Shown piece by piece: positions 3,496 through 54,537 of a stretch of DNA of 64,000 nucleotides. The notes beneath the pieces are model-generated. The model worked only from the letters and a program-made list of their open reading frames with translations. It made no database searches and was not told where the DNA came from. Both the position numbers and the translations under genes were made by a program. This stretch comes from Bdellovibrionales bacterium (GTDB taxonomy: Bacteria > Bdellovibrionota > UBA1018): positions 10,557 through 74,556 of the forward strand of contig CANCQK010000002.1 of assembly GCA_947380295.1 (NCBI GenBank), written 5' to 3'. Each line of letters opens with the position of its first letter. The first letter of the stretch is position 1.

Positions 3496-3577
3496 GACGG
3501 ATAGCGTTCAAGAAAACGTTTTCTCTCACGATCGACTTCGATAAAAGTTGATTTTTTGAAGGCATAAGGAAGAGAAT

Positions 3578-4090
3578 ATGAAAAAGGATCTCTTCCTTAT
3601 GCCTTTTTATTTGAGTCGACTTTGGATTTTATCCGTACCGGTGGCTTGTGGAGTGAGTTGCGCTCTCGTTGCGACTCGACCTGTCCAGGAGATGTCTGAT
3701 GCTGTGGCAGCGATCCGAGCAGCCCGGGAAGTTCAGGCAGATGTCCTATCTCCCGATAATTTTCGTCAAGCAATGGATCTGTTCGAGCAAGCCAAAAGGG
3801 AATATCGCTTTAAAGACTTTGCCATAGCAAAAGAGCACGCCGATGATTCTCGCGTCCTGGCAGAAAAAGCTGAGCTAGACGCGCTGCTCAATGGCGGAGC
3901 TCGAGCATCTTCGGGTGATAAAATACCTGATCCGTTGGGGGAGGGATTTCAATCGGATCAGGGTTCTGCAAATGCTCTGTCGAAGCCGAAGGCGGAACCC
4001 TATGTTTATCCTACACCTACCCCAGTGCCTGCCGAGGAGGCAGTTCAGCGCCAAATTCAGGAACAAGGCGCCGCAAACCGGGTGAAGTAG
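3578..4090 (+). CDS. DUF4398-like lipoprotein (hypothetical)
   Basis: Signal/lipobox N-terminus and an Ala-rich helical region. DUF4398 is commonly adjacent to OmpA-family genes. Identified by family resemblance only. Confidence 0.35.
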   Translation: MKKDLFLMPFYLSRLWILSVPVACGVSCALVATRPVQEMSDAVAAIRAAREVQADVLSPDNFRQAMDLFEQAKREYRFKDFAIAKEHADDSRVLAEKAELDALLNGGARASSGDKIPDPLGEGFQSDQGSANALSKPKAEPYVYPTPTPVPAEEAVQRQIQEQGAANRVK

Positions 4091-8513: not shown

Positions 8514-10181
8514 ATGAAAATCCGATCTTTTTTGGGGATCTCTTCCCTTGTTTTATTGCTGGGACTGAGATCCGCCTGGGCTCAACCTGAGAGGCAGGTT
8601 GAGCATTACTCATCTCGTCCTTCCATTCAATGTGTGGCTTCTGTTTCTCATTCAGATCTTTTTGAGAAATCCTGGCCCACACTTAAACAGGCCCAGTTAG
8701 AGTTTGTCGCTCAGGTTCTAGGGCTGTACCCAAGTGATGAAATTTATTTCTTAGCTCGGGATTCGGAGCTTTTCTTTGACCTCAGCGTACTCCTCATGGG
8801 AGTAGAAGATCGGACTCAATTGAGTCGCTTGCATCTTGTCAACGTTTCTCGGTCACATCTCGGAGCCCCGTTTCTTTTTGACTACTTGGAGCAAGAAGGG
8901 GTCTCCTACGAGGGTCTTCGTTCGGGGAAACGCTATCTTTTTGTCGATACAGGATTTACTGGCTCGATTCCTAGAAAGATCCTGAAACAGTTCACTAGTC
9001 ATCTGGGTCCAGAAGTGGGGGCACAATTTCATTGCCACTTTGTGTCTTCGATGAATCCCAGAATCCCTTCATCTCGCATTTTTTTAGCGACGCTCAGCCC
9101 TGCATCCGTGGGTCATGATCCGGGGTGGATGCGGAACACTGTCTTAGAGTACGAGTATCTCCATCGATTCAACTTTCGCTCCACCGAGTACGACTGGGTA
9201 GACGAGCGGTGGGAGCCCGCGGCTCCGCGCACAGATCAGGTCGAGAATGATGGTAAGGTTTCTCGGCCCGAGGCACTTCGGTATATGGAGGATCTTAAAG
9301 CCTATTCTGAGTTGGAGTCGACTCGTGCTCTATTTCGTGCTCGTCTCCACCTTTGGCAGCAGTTGAGGGAGGCAGCGGAGAACTCCGAACAAAGCGAGTT
9401 GGTTGCGTTGCTGAAGGCCCTGCTGGTTCGGCAGGATCTCCCAGGAGAGGCCATCGTTCGAGATTTTTTGGAATGGCAGGGCAAGGTTCTGTCTATTTTT
9501 ATTGAACTGGATGAGCTGGGGCTGATGCCCGAACATAGCATGGGTCCGAGTTCAAATAAGCGCCAGCTGATCCTGAAGTGCCCTCACTGGCGATCGATCT
9601 TAGAAGATCCGATCATTGAAGTCCCAAAGATCGTCGAAAATGGTGATTTTTTGAATTTGAACCGAATTCTGGACGTCCTTGATGATGTCCAAATTCAAAA
9701 AATAATCTTTCGCGCATTGGCGGGGCCTTTTCCGACCGAAGAAATTAAATTTGAAGCTAGAAAAAGTCTCCTCGCTCGAATTGACTTAGATAAAGGCAAA
9801 GAGCGAGAATGGATCGCTTTAGAGACCTTTTCTCAGGCCAGTTCTGTTGATTTAGGTCAGGTGCTCAATCGACTCATTGATGAGGGAGACTCTCAGGTTT
9901 GGTCTATTTTAGTGCTGAACGCATTTAAAAAACCCCATTCCATTGCCTGGAAATCTGAGCTTAACCTGCTTTTAGAGGTGGCTGAACCCGTTCATTTAAT
10001 TCAAATATTTTGTCACCCTCATTCCAAGGATTGGGGGGATGAGTTGGCTACTCTGACCGAACGGTGTGATCTAAAAATTCTGGATTTTATTTGGCGGCGG
10101 GTGTTGTCCAGACCTCATTCAATCGACTGGGGAGTAGGTGTATTCCTACTGGTTGAAGAGAGAATTAAAAAGTTAAGGTAA
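8514..10181 (+). CDS. hypothetical secreted protein (555 aa)
   Basis: N-terminal signal peptide (LVLLLGLRSAWA-QPE). I recognise no known domain. Confidence 0.45.
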   Translation: MKIRSFLGISSLVLLLGLRSAWAQPERQVEHYSSRPSIQCVASVSHSDLFEKSWPTLKQAQLEFVAQVLGLYPSDEIYFLARDSELFFDLSVLLMGVEDRTQLSRLHLVNVSRSHLGAPFLFDYLEQEGVSYEGLRSGKRYLFVDTGFTGSIPRKILKQFTSHLGPEVGAQFHCHFVSSMNPRIPSSRIFLATLSPASVGHDPGWMRNTVLEYEYLHRFNFRSTEYDWVDERWEPAAPRTDQVENDGKVSRPEALRYMEDLKAYSELESTRALFRARLHLWQQLREAAENSEQSELVALLKALLVRQDLPGEAIVRDFLEWQGKVLSIFIELDELGLMPEHSMGPSSNKRQLILKCPHWRSILEDPIIEVPKIVENGDFLNLNRILDVLDDVQIQKIIFRALAGPFPTEEIKFEARKSLLARIDLDKGKEREWIALETFSQASSVDLGQVLNRLIDEGDSQVWSILVLNAFKKPHSIAWKSELNLLLEVAEPVHLIQIFCHPHSKDWGDELATLTERCDLKILDFIWRRVLSRPHSIDWGVGVFLLVEERIKKLR

Positions 10182-48450: not shown

Positions 48451-51081
48451 ATGCAATTTAAGATGAACAGAAGTGTGACTCACACGGCATGGGTATTGTT
48501 TTTTTATCTTAATTTTTCATTTACTTCTGCGGATGCGGGTAAGAAGGGTGTTTCATCCCGTCCTCTGCCAACGCCTTCTCCTTCTGTCAAGCCAAATGCT
48601 GCGGACTTATCTCCCGAATTGATTCAGCTTGAGAGGCTGGTTGGAGAAGATAGCTTTAGGCGAGTGGTTTCTAAAACTGATGATGTTGGCTCTCGAATTC
48701 CTAGCATTATTTTTAATGCAATCAGTCATTGGGGTTTCACGATGTATGGAACGCCTCAATTTAATTTAAATTTGAAGTTCGGTCGGGACGTTTACGACAA
48801 TAAGAGCGTTTTGGGGACATGGACCGTAGTGGATCAAGTTGGAGTGGATGGTGCGGTACCATTTTTTAATTCTAGTGTTTTATTGCCTGGGATTGCGAAT
48901 GGCTTCAATTTTTATATCGGTAGCGATGCCGGCGTGGTCGTAACTGATATTAGGCAGGTCAATTCTAAGCAGTATTCTAAAATTCCATCAATAGGAGTTC
49001 GGGCAAATAAGATTCTTAAAGGTGAAGGGTATCAAAATTTATTAAAAACCAAACAGTTAGGACTTAAAGAAGGAATAGATCAACTTGAAGGAAAGTGGGT
49101 CCAATTTACGAATGAAGTTGGGGAGAAGTTGATTTCGTTTTTGCCGGCCGACTCTGAGTCGCACGCGAGATATGCCAAGATTTGGAATATGTTCTTAACT
49201 CCTTTTCGCTTGCCGTTGACTGCGTCTAGGGTGGCTAAGATGGAGCAGGACGAGATTATTTCTTATGAGGGGCAGGGAGCCTTGCAGTCTGGCTTAGGGA
49301 CGGGATGGAATATCGATCCCACGGGATTGACGAGCGCAATCAGTGCAGGGATCTCGGTGAGTGCATTCAGTCGAGGTACGTTTAGGATCTCCATTCTGAA
49401 GGAGTCCGACACAATTGTTCGGGTTAAGGTGAGTAAGATTGGTACTCTGGGGCATCAGTGGTCGGCTGGGTCAGGTTACATGCCCGGATTTCTGGATCAT
49501 GTGGTGATCCTTCGGAATCTTGCTGGATTCATTAAAATCCTACCTTTTCAGCTGAGTCGTGAGACGGATCATTCACGGACATTTGAAGTGACTTATCAGT
49601 TTGATTTGTCCACTCAGGCGGGCGCCCAGGCCTATGAAACGGCTGTGATTGGAAATCTCCAAACTGCTGACGAACTGGCGATCACGCCTCAGGGGCAGTG
49701 GCGGACCTCGCTTGCTGAGACTGGCGTCTTGAGGTTGACTGATTATCAGAGTAAGAGTCAGACCACGACAGCATCCAATATGATGCAACTTACTTTTTTG
49801 TTCAGACAAAATCAGGTGGGTCAAGTGATTGATACTGAGGGTGTGTTAGTTTCTCCAGACGGAACTAAGCGAACGCTCACGGCGCTTGCGCAGAATACCC
49901 AGGAGTGGGGTATTATTTTCAATCAATTTCAAAAATATCAGCACAACTTTGTCGTGAACTTGGATTTGGATCTTTGTGAGCGAGAACCTCAGGCTTGCCA
50001 GAAATTTCCGATGCAGATTGAGGGTCGAATCGATGATTCGGACACGACCCAATCTGCACTGCTTCATTATATTTTAGAGGTAGAGAACTCGGTCGGGCAG
50101 CCTCAGCTTTTTCCTAGAACTCCAGAGATTCGGGATCTCAGAAACTTCACGCGCGATCCCTATCAACCCTTTTATTTTTACCATCGGGGACACGATCTCG
50201 GGTCATCTCATTTTTATTACGCTCTTAATTTGAACGCCGAACAAGTGCAGGAGTTCATTGACTTTCCGCAGGAGAAAATGTGGGATGCCTTGGAGAGAGC
50301 CTTTCATGTCCGTGAGGGAGTTTGGTCCTCGGAGAGAAGTCGATGGGCTTATGGTATTTCTCGAGCGCCCGTTTCATTTGCCGATCTATTTCTGAATCTC
50401 TTTCAGCTGAACTGGGCACCTGGCACTGATCTATTTCACGCCGAGAGGGCAATTTCGAGGTGGCTGAATCTGAGAGCCATTTCGCATCCGATCAAGAAGG
50501 CTGAGGCCTTAGCTAAAACCTTTATGGATACTCTTTATAGTAAGAATATGGTCAATCTCGTGCGAACTGTACTCGCTGAGCGAGATGTGGACTATTATGC
50601 GAGTGGATCGAATCGGGTTTTTGGAAATGTGAGTAAACAAGGGGGAACTCATCTTGCGTTTGAGGATTTAGCCAGTGATTTAGCTAAGTCAGTGGAGTTG
50701 AAAAGAAAGCCTACTCCTGAAGAGCTTGATCCTGAACTTCAAGTGAATGGTTTAAGAGTAGATGGAGTTTCGGCTAGTCAACTCAGTCTCGATCTTTCGA
50801 CGCCGATCTCGCCAGACTCTTACTATGTGGATCTCACAATCAACGACTGGTCTTCATTCTTAATTAAGAACAAACTCATTTTTGCCAAGGTCTTTAAAAA
50901 CCCGGGGCAACCTGCTGGAGAGTCAAAACTGGCTCTTGATCCCAATGATCTCACATCACCCTGGGGTGAGTTAGCTCGTCATATTAGACCTAATATTCGT
51001 TACATTTTGCGCGTCGCAACTTCGAAAGACGGACAAAAGTGGGGTCCTGTGGGTCAGACTGAGTTTCGGGTCTTGCATTGA
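48451..51081 (+). CDS. hypothetical large secreted protein (876 aa)
   Basis: Signal peptide. I recognise no domain. Confidence 0.5.
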   Translation: MQFKMNRSVTHTAWVLFFYLNFSFTSADAGKKGVSSRPLPTPSPSVKPNAADLSPELIQLERLVGEDSFRRVVSKTDDVGSRIPSIIFNAISHWGFTMYGTPQFNLNLKFGRDVYDNKSVLGTWTVVDQVGVDGAVPFFNSSVLLPGIANGFNFYIGSDAGVVVTDIRQVNSKQYSKIPSIGVRANKILKGEGYQNLLKTKQLGLKEGIDQLEGKWVQFTNEVGEKLISFLPADSESHARYAKIWNMFLTPFRLPLTASRVAKMEQDEIISYEGQGALQSGLGTGWNIDPTGLTSAISAGISVSAFSRGTFRISILKESDTIVRVKVSKIGTLGHQWSAGSGYMPGFLDHVVILRNLAGFIKILPFQLSRETDHSRTFEVTYQFDLSTQAGAQAYETAVIGNLQTADELAITPQGQWRTSLAETGVLRLTDYQSKSQTTTASNMMQLTFLFRQNQVGQVIDTEGVLVSPDGTKRTLTALAQNTQEWGIIFNQFQKYQHNFVVNLDLDLCEREPQACQKFPMQIEGRIDDSDTTQSALLHYILEVENSVGQPQLFPRTPEIRDLRNFTRDPYQPFYFYHRGHDLGSSHFYYALNLNAEQVQEFIDFPQEKMWDALERAFHVREGVWSSERSRWAYGISRAPVSFADLFLNLFQLNWAPGTDLFHAERAISRWLNLRAISHPIKKAEALAKTFMDTLYSKNMVNLVRTVLAERDVDYYASGSNRVFGNVSKQGGTHLAFEDLASDLAKSVELKRKPTPEELDPELQVNGLRVDGVSASQLSLDLSTPISPDSYYVDLTINDWSSFLIKNKLIFAKVFKNPGQPAGESKLALDPNDLTSPWGELARHIRPNIRYILRVATSKDGQKWGPVGQTEFRVLH

Positions 51082-51182: not shown

Positions 51183-52052
51183 CTAGGTTGAGTACGTGAG
51201 CTTGCGGATGGCGGATAAAAATAATTCTTCTGACCAAATTTTGACCTCCTCCGGGTCAGTTAGAAAGGGTGCAATATCTGCGCGGGCAAGGTCCCATTGG
51301 ATTTTGGATAATCTTTCTTCGAGGAGTTGGGTTACCGTCTTCGAAGTTAAACTATTTTGTTGGCTTATTTTTCCGCCTTCTTTCATTTTCATTTCAAGAT
51401 ACGGTAGGTGCAGTGGTGTATTTTGTCCCAAGAACCAGAGTAAGTCGTAGAAATCACGACCTTTGACTCGGGTTTTCCAATCACGAAATAGTACTGCATG
51501 CATTTTTCCAGCAAATAATGAGCTCGGTTTAAGAACAGTGATGGATGCCGTTAGGGGAGGGAGTAGGTAGTGGACTTCTGTTTCAAATCCAAGTGGAGGA
51601 TAGACGTCCACTTCAAACTTAATCTGGAGATTTTGATTATTGTGGAGGCGTTGGGCGATCGCACTGGCGGCATCAATTTTCAATAAAAGAATCTTTGTAT
51701 TTGCCTTCAAAAAAGCTGATTCGATTTTTCTTTCTGGCGGCTTATTTGCAGTTTCAATTTCCACCGAAAATCCAAATGACTCTAGAGCCTGCTTGATAGC
51801 TGAAAAATAAGGCTTGAGCTTGAAATCGGGAGTAGTCCTCAAGAGGGTAAAGTCAAGATCCTCAGAAAATCTCGGTAGTCCATAAAAGATCCGTAAGGCT
51901 GTACCGCCATAAAAAGCTGCCCGATCGAAAAAATGGGCTCGTGAAAGTCCGGTCAGAGCGATTTCCTGGATGATCTGCTTCAGCGCATTTTCATACTCAT
52001 TTAGGTTCTTTGGGTTGTATTTCTTGATGAGTGTTTCAATAGGTTTAGCCAT
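51183..52052 (-). CDS. abiEii: AbiEii/AbiGii-family nucleotidyltransferase toxin (DUF1814), type IV TA / abortive-infection toxin
   Basis: AAFYGGTALRIFYGLPRFSEDLDFTL fits the DUF1814 GGTAL...R.SxDxD nucleotidyltransferase motif. 289 aa. Its start overlaps the upstream gene's stop by 8 nt. Confidence 0.7.
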   Translation of the reverse strand: MAKPIETLIKKYNPKNLNEYENALKQIIQEIALTGLSRAHFFDRAAFYGGTALRIFYGLPRFSEDLDFTLLRTTPDFKLKPYFSAIKQALESFGFSVEIETANKPPERKIESAFLKANTKILLLKIDAASAIAQRLHNNQNLQIKFEVDVYPPLGFETEVHYLLPPLTASITVLKPSSLFAGKMHAVLFRDWKTRVKGRDFYDLLWFLGQNTPLHLPYLEMKMKEGGKISQQNSLTSKTVTQLLEERLSKIQWDLARADIAPFLTDPEEVKIWSEELFLSAIRKLTYST

Positions 52053-52713
52053 GGTGTTGCTCCAGTTGAGGGATCAACCACTTGAGCAATCGATACTCAA
52101 AGCAGTTCCGGTGGTAGTAAGTGAGGATGTTCATGACCTGGTCTGGGTGAGTGGAGCTGAGAAAAGAGTTGAGCTTGATCCGGAGATGATGAGTGAGAAA
52201 ATCCTGGATCTCTGAATGCCCTTGTAATGCCACACCCGGGTGCCGGAGTTTGAGGTAATCGAGAAGTGCCTTTTCTGGAGTTGCAATCAGGAAATTAAAA
52301 TCCGGGTGTAAGATATACCCAAATGGGTATCGATGAGAATGAAGATGGTCATACTTAAAGTTCCCGAGCGAGGTTGAAAAATTGGACGACTTTCGCAGCG
52401 TGACAGAGGTTACGGTGCTGACTCGATCCATGATTAACCCGTAATGTTGTAGGGCCCACTCCGCCGAGACATAGGATGGAAAATAAAGTGCATTTGCTAA
52501 GACTTCGAGAGGTGTTTCGCGCAAGTCCTTGGTTCTCAAGTTAATGTAGTGACCACGTGAAGTCATCTCCAAGTCACCTCGTCGAACGAGATCGAAGATC
52601 TTTTTTCTCGGCTGCTTGAAGTGCTTGAATCGGTCCACTAAAAGGCGCAAGTCGGCCTGAATGGGGAGCTGTTCAAGAATAGAGAGGTCTGTATAGATGC
52701 TCTTTTTCTGCAT
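52045..52713 (-). CDS. abiEi: AbiEi-family antitoxin / transcriptional regulator (N-terminal wHTH)
   Basis: 222 aa. The N-terminus (…DLVRRGDLEMTSRGHYINL) resembles the AbiEi_4 wHTH (…L..G.L.R...G.Y). Translationally coupled to the abiEii-like gene. Confidence 0.6.
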   Translation of the reverse strand: MQKKSIYTDLSILEQLPIQADLRLLVDRFKHFKQPRKKIFDLVRRGDLEMTSRGHYINLRTKDLRETPLEVLANALYFPSYVSAEWALQHYGLIMDRVSTVTSVTLRKSSNFSTSLGNFKYDHLHSHRYPFGYILHPDFNFLIATPEKALLDYLKLRHPGVALQGHSEIQDFLTHHLRIKLNSFLSSTHPDQVMNILTYYHRNCFEYRLLKWLIPQLEQHHG

Positions 52714-52755
52714 AGTTTATTACTGATATGGTAACAAACTATGCAGAAAAAGAGC
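52699..52755. repeat. 25-bp inverted repeat (24/25 match) with a 7-nt spacer, spanning the abiEi start codon and its first 15 coding nucleotides
   Basis: gctctttttctgcatagtttattac at 52699-52723, spacer tgatatg, gtaacaaactatgcagaaaaagagc at 52731-52755. Read directly. Confidence 0.7.
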
Positions 52756-52867
52756 AAATAGATTCGATGCGCTCCCCATTTGAGCAGAAGGGCCGCCCGT
52801 ATGGGTTGTAAGCTGCAAAAGTCTTAATTTTTTTGGTTGACGAAAAGGTTCCTTGCGAGTGTCACCA

Positions 52868-54028
52868 CTAGTTAATGATAGGTTTTGCATTCTCGCTATA
52901 CGTCTTTAATACAGCAGCAACGCCCTGGCCAAGTTCAAACGAGTGGCCTAGTTCATGGAGGACGAGTTCTAGGGCTGAAATTCCAGTAATGACGTCAAAT
53001 CGGTCACAATACCCGAAGTGAGAGAGGCGGATGATCTTGCCTTCGAGTTCGTCCTGCCCTCCAGCGATCGTGACTCCGTATTGGTCTCTCATCATCTTCG
53101 GGATTTGTTTCCCGTCCTTGATGTTTGAGGGCACGACGACTGCGGTAACCGCATTGGAGGGGGCTTTCTTCGAGAGGAGTTCCAGGTGGAGAGCCTTGAC
53201 TGCGTTCCGGGTGGCGCGGGCCAAAAGATCGTGGCGTTTGAAGACGTTATGAAGCCCCTCATTGCGGAGCATTTTGAGGCTCTCTTGGAGTCCTTGAATG
53301 ATTGAGATGGCGGGGGTCCATGCAGTTTGATTTTTTGCCTGTGCTTTTCGCTCTTTGGAAAGATCAAAATAAAAACGAGGCAGCTCTGCCTGAGCATGGG
53401 CTTTCCATGCCTTTTCGTTCAGTGCAATCATCGCCAGTCCGGGAGGGAGCATGAGGGCTTTTTGTGAACCCGTGATGAGGACGTCGATTCCCCAATCGTC
53501 CATGGGGAGGTCAAAGACCCCGCAGGCGGTGATCGCGTCACAAACGCTGAGCATCCCCGCTTGGGAGGCAATTCGACAGATTTCCTGAGTGGGCATGACC
53601 ACGCCTGTTGAGGTCTCAGAGGCTTGAAATAAGATGGCCTTTGCATCGGGGTGCTGTCGCACGCACTCTTCGAGTTGGTCGGGTTCGACAGCAGTTCCTG
53701 GGGGTAGGAGAATTTCGATGGGATTGAGTGCAAACGTTTTTGCGAGTTTGGTCCATCGCTCGCCGAATTTGCCGCCATTGATCGTGATGACCTTTTGGCC
53801 TGTTGAAAACAGGTTGGTCGCGGCGGCTTCCATTGCCCCTGTGCCTGTAGTGGTGAGGATCAAGACCTCATTCTTGGTTTGAAAGAGGTATTTCAGTCCT
53901 TGGCGGACGTCTTCGAAAATGCTCTGAAATGCGGGAGTGCGATGGTGGATAATCGGCTTGGCAAAAAGCGCACTAATATTTTCTGGGATTGGAGTTGGGC
54001 CGGGAGTGAGAAGGTACGTCTTCATCAT
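52868..54028 (-). CDS. class V aminotransferase (serine--pyruvate / alanine--glyoxylate aminotransferase family)
   Basis: N-terminal LLTPGPTPIP and a PLP fold-type I pattern. 386 aa. Confidence 0.75.
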   Translation of the reverse strand: MMKTYLLTPGPTPIPENISALFAKPIIHHRTPAFQSIFEDVRQGLKYLFQTKNEVLILTTTGTGAMEAAATNLFSTGQKVITINGGKFGERWTKLAKTFALNPIEILLPPGTAVEPDQLEECVRQHPDAKAILFQASETSTGVVMPTQEICRIASQAGMLSVCDAITACGVFDLPMDDWGIDVLITGSQKALMLPPGLAMIALNEKAWKAHAQAELPRFYFDLSKERKAQAKNQTAWTPAISIIQGLQESLKMLRNEGLHNVFKRHDLLARATRNAVKALHLELLSKKAPSNAVTAVVVPSNIKDGKQIPKMMRDQYGVTIAGGQDELEGKIIRLSHFGYCDRFDVITGISALELVLHELGHSFELGQGVAAVLKTYSENAKPIIN

Positions 54029-54117: not shown

Positions 54118-54537
54118 TCACTTACCGGGTTTTTGCTGCCGCTTGTTTGACTTGTCCTCGATGATCTCGTCGATGATGGCGAGCGCTTCGTGGCGCAGGT
54201 CATTTTCAAAAATAAAACGGTAGAAATTTTCCATGTCCGGGTGGTGTCTGAAATTCTTAAAGGAGGCTGACATTTCTCCGCCGCCTGCCGCTGCTAGGGC
54301 TGCGGCATTTCCGCCGCCTGCGCTTGAAGCTGCTTCTGCTTCCTCTTCGATTTCCTCAGCTTCTTCTGCTGCATCAGGATTTAACTGGGGAGGTGCGACT
54401 TCGAGAACCTCTTCCTCAATCTTGGCGTGTTTCTTCTCTGCCTTGGAATGAGAGGGGGCCTTGGAGTTCTTTTTTGAAGACTCCTTGGCGGGTTCTTTTT
54501 TTCGACTAGCAGACTTGGCGTTGGCTTTTGTGCTCAT
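54118..54537 (-). CDS. hypothetical protein with a Lys-rich N-terminus, acidic/Ala-Gly linker and conserved C-terminal helix
   Basis: Compositional only: KKEPAKESSKKNSK..., EEAEEIEEEAEAASSAGGG. Confidence 0.35.
   Translation of the reverse strand: MSTKANAKSASRKKEPAKESSKKNSKAPSHSKAEKKHAKIEEEVLEVAPPQLNPDAAEEAEEIEEEAEAASSAGGGNAAALAAAGGGEMSASFKNFRHHPDMENFYRFIFENDLRHEALAIIDEIIEDKSNKRQQKPGK

Follow-up and report, generated by a model that had tools for sequence, protein, structure and literature searches.

A palindrome overlapping the abiEi start codon is very probably the operator of an AbiE toxin–antitoxin cassette from a Bdellovibrionales bacterium

Organization of the abiE cassette

AbiE toxins arrest growth, and some AbiE members confer phage resistance. 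The locus described here, located within a 64,000-nucleotide stretch of DNA from a Bdellovibrionales bacterium (the window), is an ordinary two-gene AbiE toxin–antitoxin cassette (Table 1). The gene calls agree with the original prediction of a regulator gene followed by a DUF1814 gene with an overlap of 8 nt, which spans positions 52045–52052. Homologous loci keep the order of antitoxin and then toxin, with AbiEii encoded directly downstream of abiEi and its gene overlapping or abutting that of the antitoxin; the overlap is 4–34 nt long where both genes were fully called. A single-protein search of the genome contigs with AbiEi identified only one related locus. The cassette is found in unrelated genomic contexts, one of the loci (L082) being located near a contig end, and its GC content is slightly below that of the flanks.

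Table 1 Features of the abiE locus, with positions in the window
Feature	Position	Strand	Description
abiEi	52045–52713	minus	222 aa; N-terminal winged helix-turn-helix and C-terminal antitoxin domain
abiEii	51183–52052	minus	289 aa; DUF1814 nucleotidyltransferase toxin
abiEii Shine-Dalgarno GGAG	52060–52063	minus	7 nt 5′ of the abiEii ATG, within the 3′ end of abiEi; sequence reading
Upstream (promoter-proximal) arm, IR1 equivalent	52731–52756	minus	blocks conserved in 16 loci
Upstream-arm outer block	52746–52756	minus	family consensus TGCACTTTTTT; window TGCTCTTTTTC
Upstream-arm inner block	52731–52738	minus	TTTGTTAC
Spacer CATATCA	52724–52730	minus	7 nt; dyad centre 52727
Downstream arm, IR2 equivalent	52698–52723	minus	holds the predicted transcription start, the ATG and codons 2–5 plus 1 nt
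Downstream-arm outer block AAAAAGAGCA	52698–52708	minus	entirely coding sequence
Putative −35 TTGCTC	52752–52757	minus	family TTGCAC; in the upstream-arm outer block
Putative extended −10 TGnTACCAT	52728–52736	minus	family TGTTACTAT; 18 nt after the −35, at the dyad centre
Predicted transcription start zone	52719–52723, ~52721	minus	placed from the −10 position; leader of 6–10 nt

The assignment of the two proteins to AbiEi and AbiEii was upheld by profile HMMs and by fold. AbiEi matches the PADLOC AbiEi profile PDLC02230 (1.5e-42) and, under the curated cutoff, the NCBIfam profile TAA_AbiEi (4e-9). A Pfam scan of AbiEi returned no AbiEi family match and only a sub-threshold hit to CdiI_2. A sequence search of the PDB with the AbiEi family profile gave nothing relevant, and a fold search was needed. 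Foldseek with the AlphaFold model of AbiEi (pLDDT 92) ranked at the top 6Y8Q, the AbiEi of S. agalactiae (E = 8.8e-5, probability 1.0), and 1ZEL, which is Rv2827c; the best TM-score was that with 1ZEL (TMq 0.55). Homologues of AbiEi are 222–225 residues long and cover 100% of the protein.

AbiEii matches the PADLOC AbiEii profile (1.8e-101) and Pfam family PF08843 (1.1e-32 over residues 32–267). Motifs I–IV of this DNA-polymerase-beta-type nucleotidyltransferase, defined as hG[GS]x(n)DhD with Arg, KhxAaxxR, and +DxxD (PMC3985639), are all intact: YGG48-50...R61-F-S63-E-D65-L-D67, K183MHAVLFR, and R199DFYD. In AbiE systems, the antitoxin has recently been shown to neutralize the toxin by inducing its autophosphorylation. 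Judging from motif numbering, Ser63 of AbiEii would be in register with T65, the phospho-acceptor of S. agalactiae AbiEii (bioRxiv 10.64898/2026.01.19.700257).

An in-frame TAA is located one codon 5′ of the abiEi ATG (52713–52711), which is therefore the earliest possible start of the gene. In the public annotation P0001, abiEi starts at Met50, and the 49 residues before it are missing; in the model, these contain the opening helices of the DNA-binding domain at the N-terminus. We rejected Met50 and corrected the gene start, since most homologues have Q, L or P at this position and residues 11–50 of the model have pLDDT above 90.

The palindrome and its conservation

The start of abiEi is embedded in a 59-bp palindrome (52698–52756) with 26-nt arms that are complementary at 25 of 26 positions and separated by a 7-nt spacer. 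It is the strongest inverted repeat within the 64-kb window. The repeat is real, and proved slightly longer than the 57 bp, with 25-nt arms matching at 24 positions, that had been described for it. The promoter-distal arm takes in 16 coding nucleotides of abiEi, namely the ATG and the 13 bases after it; the start codon and coding bases are thus inside the arm as had been claimed, and only the extent, previously given as 15 nt beyond the ATG, required correction. The opposite arm is indeed an inverted copy of these 16 nucleotides of abiEi. Further operator copies or half-sites were sought across the window, and the abiE site was the only one, other matches with one mismatch occurring at chance level.

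Two further elements were rejected. A perfect 10-nt inverted repeat around the palindrome (52660–52669 and 52771–52780) is off-centre by 7 nt and missing in L082, which is 77% identical. A mini-ORF on the plus strand, ATGCAGAAAAAGAGCAAATAG (MQKKSK*), arises automatically from the palindrome and is not kept in the other loci.

The palindrome is present in the same register at 15 further, distinct homologous loci, in which AbiEi is 44–77% identical, and is therefore not due to chance. The 16 loci align without gaps from −46 to +16 relative to the abiEi start, with the consensus TTGCACTTTTTTtG.at..TTtGTTAC-TATtttA-GTAACaAact-ATGCAAAAAAAGAGCA. The alignment of the 16 loci contains no conservation upstream of the palindrome, and the conserved stretch begins at its left edge. 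Pairing across the dyad is found in 82% of cells, compared with 39–50% when the partners are slid, and both sides have changed in 11 of the 26 dyad pairs, compared with 3–6 when slid and with 0/500 shuffles; because the loci are related, these changes, like the codon counts given below, are not independent events.

The edge of inter-locus conservation at the left end of the palindrome, the unrelated genomic contexts of the cassette and its slightly lower GC content would suit a structural or mobility feature, such as a cassette boundary or a recombination site. That the palindrome is such a non-regulatory feature, or an artefact of chance or duplication, is most improbable. The window contains neither a second copy nor a further half-site, be it 3′ of abiEii or at any other place, and there is no recombinase adjacent to the cassette. 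Furthermore, the palindrome keeps its register with the ATG to the exact base, and the layout matches that of experimentally proven AbiEi operators (PMC3985639, PMC7319586).

The compensatory changes of the two arms are equally compatible with a hairpin, in RNA or DNA, and with a dyad bound by protein. The dyad mismatches, counted by hand, comprise approximately 21 G–T and 10 A–C, a weak lean towards the pair that wobbles on the sense strand. The sequence itself is kept, beyond pairing, including a conserved A–A mismatch in the dyad, and the arm segment opposite the ATG is complementary at 31–62% across the family. Near-perfect arms over their full length (dyad positions k = 4–30) are found in three of the 16 loci, namely the window (25/27), L082 (24/27), and L084 (26/27), and exceed what the bipartite family consensus requires.

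Putative promoter elements within the palindrome

The genes upstream of the cassette vary among the homologous loci and are mostly divergent. Therefore, the promoter must lie in the conserved block. A scan of positions 52600–52900 for sigma-70-type promoters, at a threshold of 4 of 6 positions, and for terminators found nothing, so the promoter assignment rests on family conservation and on the analogy with the mapped promoter of S. agalactiae. The putative −35 element agrees with TTGACA at three of six positions, both as TTGCTC and as the family form TTGCAC. Its first T (52757) is conserved in 15 of the 16 loci and its dyad partner is not. Within the putative −10 element, A2 is invariant, and T6 is present in 15 of the 16 loci without a dyad partner. 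The two bases with asymmetric conservation, T at −44 and T at −15, thus correspond to position 1 of the −35 and position 6 of the −10. The first three bases of the spacer (TAT in the family) are also conserved asymmetrically, as would suit the 3′ end of a −10 hexamer.

No Shine-Dalgarno sequence was found 5′ of abiEi in any of the 16 loci. The GGAG 5′ of abiEii indicates that the organism does use Shine-Dalgarno sites, in contrast to the start of abiEi. The predicted transcription start, approximately 8 nt 5′ of the ATG, would leave the upstream arm untranscribed, and RNA beginning there is predicted to be unstructured (z = +0.7).

The original prediction included, for the case that the repeat is transcribed, a hairpin that sequesters the ribosome-binding site and the start codon. 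Transcription of the whole palindrome would place both arms in one RNA, and the resulting 26-bp stem (−41.5 kcal/mol, z = −9.6) could bury the start codon and control the translation of abiEi. Both the compensatory changes and the mild excess of G–T over A–C mismatches are compatible with such a stem. In the window, the upstream aminotransferase gene is co-directional with the cassette and no terminator-like site was detected before the palindrome, so read-through RNA containing both arms is possible. Nevertheless, control of abiEi by the hairpin is decidedly unlikely, and this part of the prediction was not supported, on indirect evidence. The conserved region starts at the left edge of the palindrome, the homologous loci share no upstream promoter, since the genes before the cassette vary and most of them lie on the other strand, and the palindrome itself holds the −35-like and −10-like elements. 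A Shine-Dalgarno sequence that could be sequestered is absent, the part of the stem that faces the ATG is only 31–62% complementary in the family, and the sequence is conserved as such, with its A–A mismatch.

The palindrome might instead be used twice, primarily as the AbiEi operator and, in read-through RNA, as a fold that silences abiEi translation or is cleaved, which would insulate the cassette from foreign transcription. The evidence for an operator applies equally to this possibility, and the hairpin energy and the nearly perfect arms of the window, L082, and L084 speak for it. We consider it an unlikely conjecture: near-perfect arms are confined to three of the 16 loci, and the upstream contexts of those three are not all co-directional or known. 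Similarly improbable is an extended version, according to which the palindrome works at two levels, as an operator in DNA and as a 26-bp stem burying the start codon in incoming transcripts, and AbiEi subfamilies are widely leaderless or near-leaderless with first codons written by the operator. If it were true, only the repressible promoter of the cassette itself could set the toxin–antitoxin ratio, as the stem would bury the start codon in transcripts from outside.

Constraint on the first codons of abiEi

Codons 4 and 5 of abiEi, which lie in the downstream arm, are constrained at the level of the DNA. Ser-5 is encoded by AGC in all 13 cases in which the residue is Ser, and AGC is the rarest Ser codon elsewhere in these abiEi genes (11%). 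Lys-4 is encoded by AAG in 15 of 15 Lys cases, compared with 34% elsewhere, and the Cys and Gly variants of codon 5 retain xGC. The fixation of the Lys-4 and Ser-5 codons shows selection at the DNA level. In the AbiEi model, residues 1–8 are without secondary structure according to DSSP, and residues 1–10 have a mean pLDDT of 69. Most likely, a DNA site fixes the first five codons of abiEi, as an operator that reaches 16 bases into the gene. The repressor-binding site and the reading frame would share the same 16 bases, with the binding site prevailing, and MQKKS and its synonymous codons are frozen among proteins that are otherwise only approximately 50% identical.

Proposed regulation of the abiE operon

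The best explanation of the palindrome, which we hold to be probable, is that of an AbiEi operator that encloses the operon promoter and overlaps the start of abiEi. The locus contains a conserved and covarying inverted repeat of 2 × 26 bp around promoter-like elements, resembling proven operators (PMC3985639, PMC7319586). By analogy with these, the palindrome is very probably the AbiEi operator, with the coding start included, and AbiEi is predicted to bind it.

AbiEi would serve as the antitoxin and as the repressor of its own operon, and AbiEii would be the nucleotidyltransferase toxin. Two blocks would make up each 26-bp arm, TGCWCTTTTT on the outside and TTTGTTAC on the inside, and each arm would probably bind one AbiEi molecule, as proposed by analogy with S. 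agalactiae. The operon promoter is predicted to lie within the operator, with the −35 in the upstream arm, the −10 at the dyad centre, and the transcription start in the downstream arm, so that bound AbiEi would occlude RNA polymerase from approximately −36 to +24 relative to the transcription start. The abiEi mRNA would have a very short leader devoid of a Shine-Dalgarno sequence. Because the predicted leader is almost absent, codons 2–5 coincide with the outer block of the downstream arm, and the operator would thereby dictate the disordered N-terminal peptide MQKKS together with its exact codons. AbiEii would be translated from its own GGAG, in a manner coupled to abiEi through the 8-nt overlap. 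The palindrome does not reveal a new mechanism; it allows the operator sequence to be predicted for an AbiEi subfamily that is centred on Bdellovibrionota and missed by Pfam.

Comparison with known AbiEi systems

An operator that includes the start codon had been called novel. The operator is very probable and does include the coding start, but its novelty was overstated, since the layout was published for S. agalactiae (PMC3985639). There, AbiEi binds two 23-bp inverted repeats that are 3 bp apart; a −35 with experimental support, TTGCTT, falls within IR1, and IR2 follows +1 (Dy et al. 2014, PMC3985639). Both cassettes are bicistronic and overlapping, with the antitoxin gene before the toxin gene, and encode an AbiEi with a winged helix-turn-helix and a C-terminal domain and a DUF1814 AbiEii with motifs I–IV. 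Only family HMMs and the fold reveal the likeness of the two AbiEi proteins (13% identity to 6Y8Q). Both loci have two long inverted repeats with a short gap between them. A −35 element (putatively TTGCTC/TTGCAC here) occupies the outer block of IR1, a −10 element, likewise putative here, is central, and IR2 is past the transcription start, predicted here. The outer block is T-rich in both, TGTTGCTTTTA in S. agalactiae and TTGCWCTTTTT here. The arms and gap are 26 and 7 nt here (59 bp), unlike 23 and 3 nt in S. agalactiae (49 bp), and the genes overlap by 8 nt rather than 4 nt. The S. agalactiae leader is 26 nt long and has a ribosome-binding site, whereas the leader predicted here is approximately 8 nt long without a Shine-Dalgarno sequence, and therefore the IR2 equivalent covers the ATG and codons 2–5. 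The predicted layout matches the S. agalactiae operator design with the 5′ leader almost deleted.

Rv2827c of the M. tuberculosis pair Rv2827c-Rv2826c (MenA/MenT-type COG5340/DUF1814) is likewise an autoregulating antitoxin, and the 23-bp inverted repeats to which it binds have gaps of 13 bp (Beck et al. 2020, PMC7319586). The repeats straddle the promoter and the transcription start (PMC7319586). They lie within −1 to −71 and end right before the start codon, wholly upstream of the coding sequence, unlike here. Rv2827c also differs in that its four repeats form two pairs, with negative cooperativity or none, and its C-terminal domain is larger than that of the AbiEi described here.

Other metagenomic AbiEi subfamilies (L007–L081), with different half-site sequences, have palindromes right before the antitoxin gene, with arms of 16–24 nt and spacers of 2–7 nt. 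In several of them, the downstream arm takes in the inferred ATG at its outer end, for example ...GAAATGA (L026, L031, L047), ...TATATGAA (L039), and ...GAAATGAAT (L045). The coding overlap, given the inferred starts, is 2–6 nt there, compared with 16 nt here. Palindromes that abut or overlap the ATG are common in distant AbiEi subfamilies, which further weakens the claim of novelty. Contact or overlap with the start codon may accordingly be common among AbiEi operators, which would imply very short leaders, and such operators may guide the design of promoter probes and EMSA for AbiE and MenAT systems.

The abiEi–abiEii pair and its surroundings

The abiEi and abiEii genes constitute an AbiE system. 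This identity, together with the 8-nt overlap of the genes, had been part of the original prediction, and is borne out by the reading-frame coordinates and by matches of both proteins. AbiEii matches Pfam family PF08843 (AbiEii; 1.1e-32) and the PADLOC AbiEii model (1.8e-101), and contains all four DUF1814 motifs (YGG48-50 ... R61-F-S63-E-D65-L-D67, K183MHAVLFR, and R199DFYD, as defined in PMC3985639), mutations of which abolish toxicity in S. agalactiae (PMC3985639). AbiE systems were recently proposed to be type VII, with AbiEi inducing autophosphorylation of AbiEii at T65 (bioRxiv 10.64898/2026.01.19.700257); Ser63 of AbiEii from the window probably occupies the same motif register. The AbiEii gene of homologous locus L092 (2142-2937) is called in two pieces of 51 and 233 aa, and possibly represents a frameshifted toxin.

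AbiEi has no match in Pfam and no sequence-level match in the PDB. It matches the PADLOC AbiEi model (1.5e-42) and NCBIfam TAA_AbiEi (4e-9, under the cutoff of that model). The AlphaFold model of AbiEi, built on 53 homologues (pLDDT 92, pTM 0.85), has S. agalactiae AbiEi (6Y8Q, E = 8.8e-5) and Rv2827c (1ZEL, TMq 0.55) as its top PDB matches. The named homologues are from Bdellovibrionota and Pseudobdellovibrionaceae. The public gene call (P0001, 173 aa) begins at Met50, just 3' of a Shine-Dalgarno-like GAGGTGA, and lacks the first 49 residues. We rejected this start, since most homologues have Q, L, or P at residue 50, and the model has pLDDT > 90 over residues 11-50. The 222-aa form, preceded by an in-frame TAA one codon 5' of its ATG, is the real AbiEi.

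On one side of the cassette is an aminotransferase/thiolase block, and on the other a convergent ORF for an 876-aa protein. Its GC content is ~0.44, as against 0.50-0.54 in the upstream aminotransferase/thiolase genes. Several homologous cassettes adjoin other toxin-antitoxin genes (HipA in L083, HicA/HicB in L089).

Table. Features of the abiE region and other elements of the window
Feature	Position	Strand	Description
abiEi ORF	52045-52713	minus	222 aa, opens at first possible start
abiEii ORF	51183-52052	minus	289 aa
Palindrome arms	52698-52723 and 52731-52756		26 nt each, 25/26 complementary, 7-nt spacer
Putative -35	52757-52752	minus	TTGCTC in window, TTGCAC in family; outer block of upstream arm
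Putative -10	52736-52728	minus	family TACTAT preceded by TGn; TGTTACCAT in window; 18 nt after -35
876-aa ORF	48451-51081	plus	convergent with abiEii; hydrophobic N-terminus; no Pfam domain at E <= 0.001
Aminotransferase gene	52868-54028	minus	upstream of abiEi
139-aa ORF	54118-54537	minus	Lys/Glu/Ala-rich, no Pfam match; between thiolase and aminotransferase genes
Other inverted repeat	3559-3605		perfect 17-nt pair, 13-nt loop
Other inverted repeat	9639-9710		24-nt pair, 83% complementary

A conserved palindrome covers the start of abiEi

The start of abiEi lies in a 59-bp palindrome, the strongest short-range inverted repeat across the whole 64-kb window. The promoter-distal arm holds the ATG (52713-52711) and the next 13 coding bases. 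A palindrome over the start codon had been correctly anticipated, although with 25-nt arms, a length of 57 bp, and 15 coding nucleotides within the arm. No further copies of the putative operator were found elsewhere in the window. The palindrome is bracketed, 7 nt off-centre, by a perfect 10-nt inverted repeat, AATGGGGAGC / GCTCCCCATT (52660-52669 / 52771-52780), which the closest homologous locus, L082, lacks and which is probably due to chance. The plus-strand mirror mini-ORF ATGCAGAAAAAGAGCAAATAG (MQKKSK*, 52736-52756) is a by-product of the symmetry and is not kept in other loci.

Comparison of the window with DNA of 15 further distinct loci, whose AbiEi proteins are 44-77% identical to that of the window, indicates that the palindrome is a conserved feature of the family. 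All sixteen sequences align to the abiEi ATG without any gap, with the consensus TTGCACTTTTTTtG.at..TTtGTTAC / TATtttA / GTAACaAact ATGCAAAAAAAGAGCA from -44 to +16 and the dyad centre at -14; no conserved sequence was found 5' of about -46. The symmetry is concentrated in an inner block (TTTGTTAC / GTAACAAA; 75-100% complementary) and an outer block (TGCACTTTTTT / AAAAAAGAGCA; 81-100%, a single conserved A-A mismatch excepted). Between these blocks, complementarity drops to 31-62% at the seven positions that lie opposite the ATG; symmetry over the full length, as in the window, L082, and L084, is atypical. Paired bases fill 82% of the dyad cells, versus 39-50% when the partners are slid by 1-3 columns, and changes on both sides occur in 11 of 26 pairs, versus 3-6; none of 500 shuffles reached either observed value.

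The overlap of the palindrome with the coding start demonstrably constrains codon choice, as judged from the aligned genes. The N-terminus MQKKS is present in 34 of 53 AbiEi homologues, while residues 6-8 vary freely; in the AbiEi model residues 1-8 are without DSSP secondary structure, and the mean pLDDT of residues 1-10 is 69. Synonymous sites would otherwise be expected to be randomised because the proteins are ~50% identical. In these phylogenetically non-independent loci, the codon of Lys-4 is AAG in 15/15 (against 34% for Lys in the rest of these genes), that of Ser-5 is AGC in 13/13 (the rarest Ser codon elsewhere in these genes, 11%), and Cys or Gly at residue 5 is still encoded by xGC. 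These three observations point to a constraint acting on DNA, not protein. In L084 both arms have changed together: TTTTTTAGCAT of the upstream arm is matched by ATGCTAAAAAA, and its TGCAC by GTGCA, a change that converts Ser to Cys.

Putative promoter and proposed repression

Two thymines, at -44 and -15, are conserved in the family without a dyad partner, and correspond to position 1 of the putative -35 and position 6 of the putative -10 element. This asymmetry would make the palindromic promoter unidirectional. Given the predicted elements at those positions, transcription should start near 52721 and produce a leader of ~8 nt. No Shine-Dalgarno sequence precedes abiEi in any of the sixteen loci, whereas abiEii has GGAG 7 nt 5' of its ATG. 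The upstream neighbours of abiEi (among them HipA, a solute-binding protein, RlmN, YkuD, and a peptidase) are not the same at every homologous locus, and most lie on the opposite strand. Therefore, the promoter of the cassette must lie within the conserved block.

The original prediction also envisaged an RNA hairpin sequestering the ribosome-binding site. If a single RNA contained both arms, they would form a very stable stem (-41.5 kcal/mol, z = -9.6), and G-T mismatches mildly exceed A-C in a hand tally, a weak and non-independent signal. However, the RNA from the predicted start is unstructured (z = +0.7), the cassette's own promoter should leave the upstream arm untranscribed, abiEi has no ribosome-binding site to sequester, and the pairing facing the ATG is poorly conserved. 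The sequestration proposal is not supported, and purely RNA-based control of abiEi is very unlikely. A secondary role of the palindrome in silencing read-through transcripts could be imagined in the window, because the upstream aminotransferase gene is co-directional with abiEi and no terminator was detected after it; we consider this role unlikely. The AbiE cassette is genuine and conserved, and the palindrome is most likely its autoregulatory operator. RNA polymerase would be occluded by AbiEi bound to the two arms, and the coding overlap is probably a simple consequence of the near-absent leader.

Comparison with other known or probable AbiEi operators

Among more distant AbiEi relatives (70 loci scanned), palindromes directly 5' of abiEi are the rule, with 16-24-nt arms and 2-7-nt spacers. 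These subfamilies (L007-L081) have long palindromes of their own, such as ATTTC...N4...GAAAT. The downstream arm takes in the ATG in L026, L031, and L047 (...GAAATGA), L039 (...TATATGAA), and L045 (...GAAATGAAT), lies over a GTG start in L062, and stops 3-5 nt short of the ATG in other distant loci. Since the arms reach the ATG in several distant loci, operator-start overlap appears widespread in the AbiEi family, and abiEi genes may generally have short leaders or none. The 16-nt reach into the coding sequence in the window is extreme among the loci compared. The expected novelty of an operator over the coding start holds to the extent that we found no published AbiEi operator inside coding sequence within the limited literature searched, but not for the overlap as such.

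Among characterised systems, Rv2827c has 23-bp repeats with 13-bp gaps, straddling the promoter within -1 to -71 (PMC7319586). The S. agalactiae operator is TGTTGCTTTTATACCACAAATAT-N3-AAAATTGTAGTGTAAAAGCAACA, with the -35 TTGCTT within IR1, the -10 17 bp further on, at the centre, and IR2 after +1; its AbiEi binds in two events and represses the promoter (PMC3985639). Similarly, the upstream arm in the window and its family carries the putative -35 in its outer block, with the putative -10 downstream. In S. agalactiae, transcription starts at a mapped site 26 nt 5' of the ATG (PMC3985639), whereas the leader predicted in the window is about 8 nt. The probable operator in the window shares the published S. 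agalactiae design, of which it is an incremental variant.
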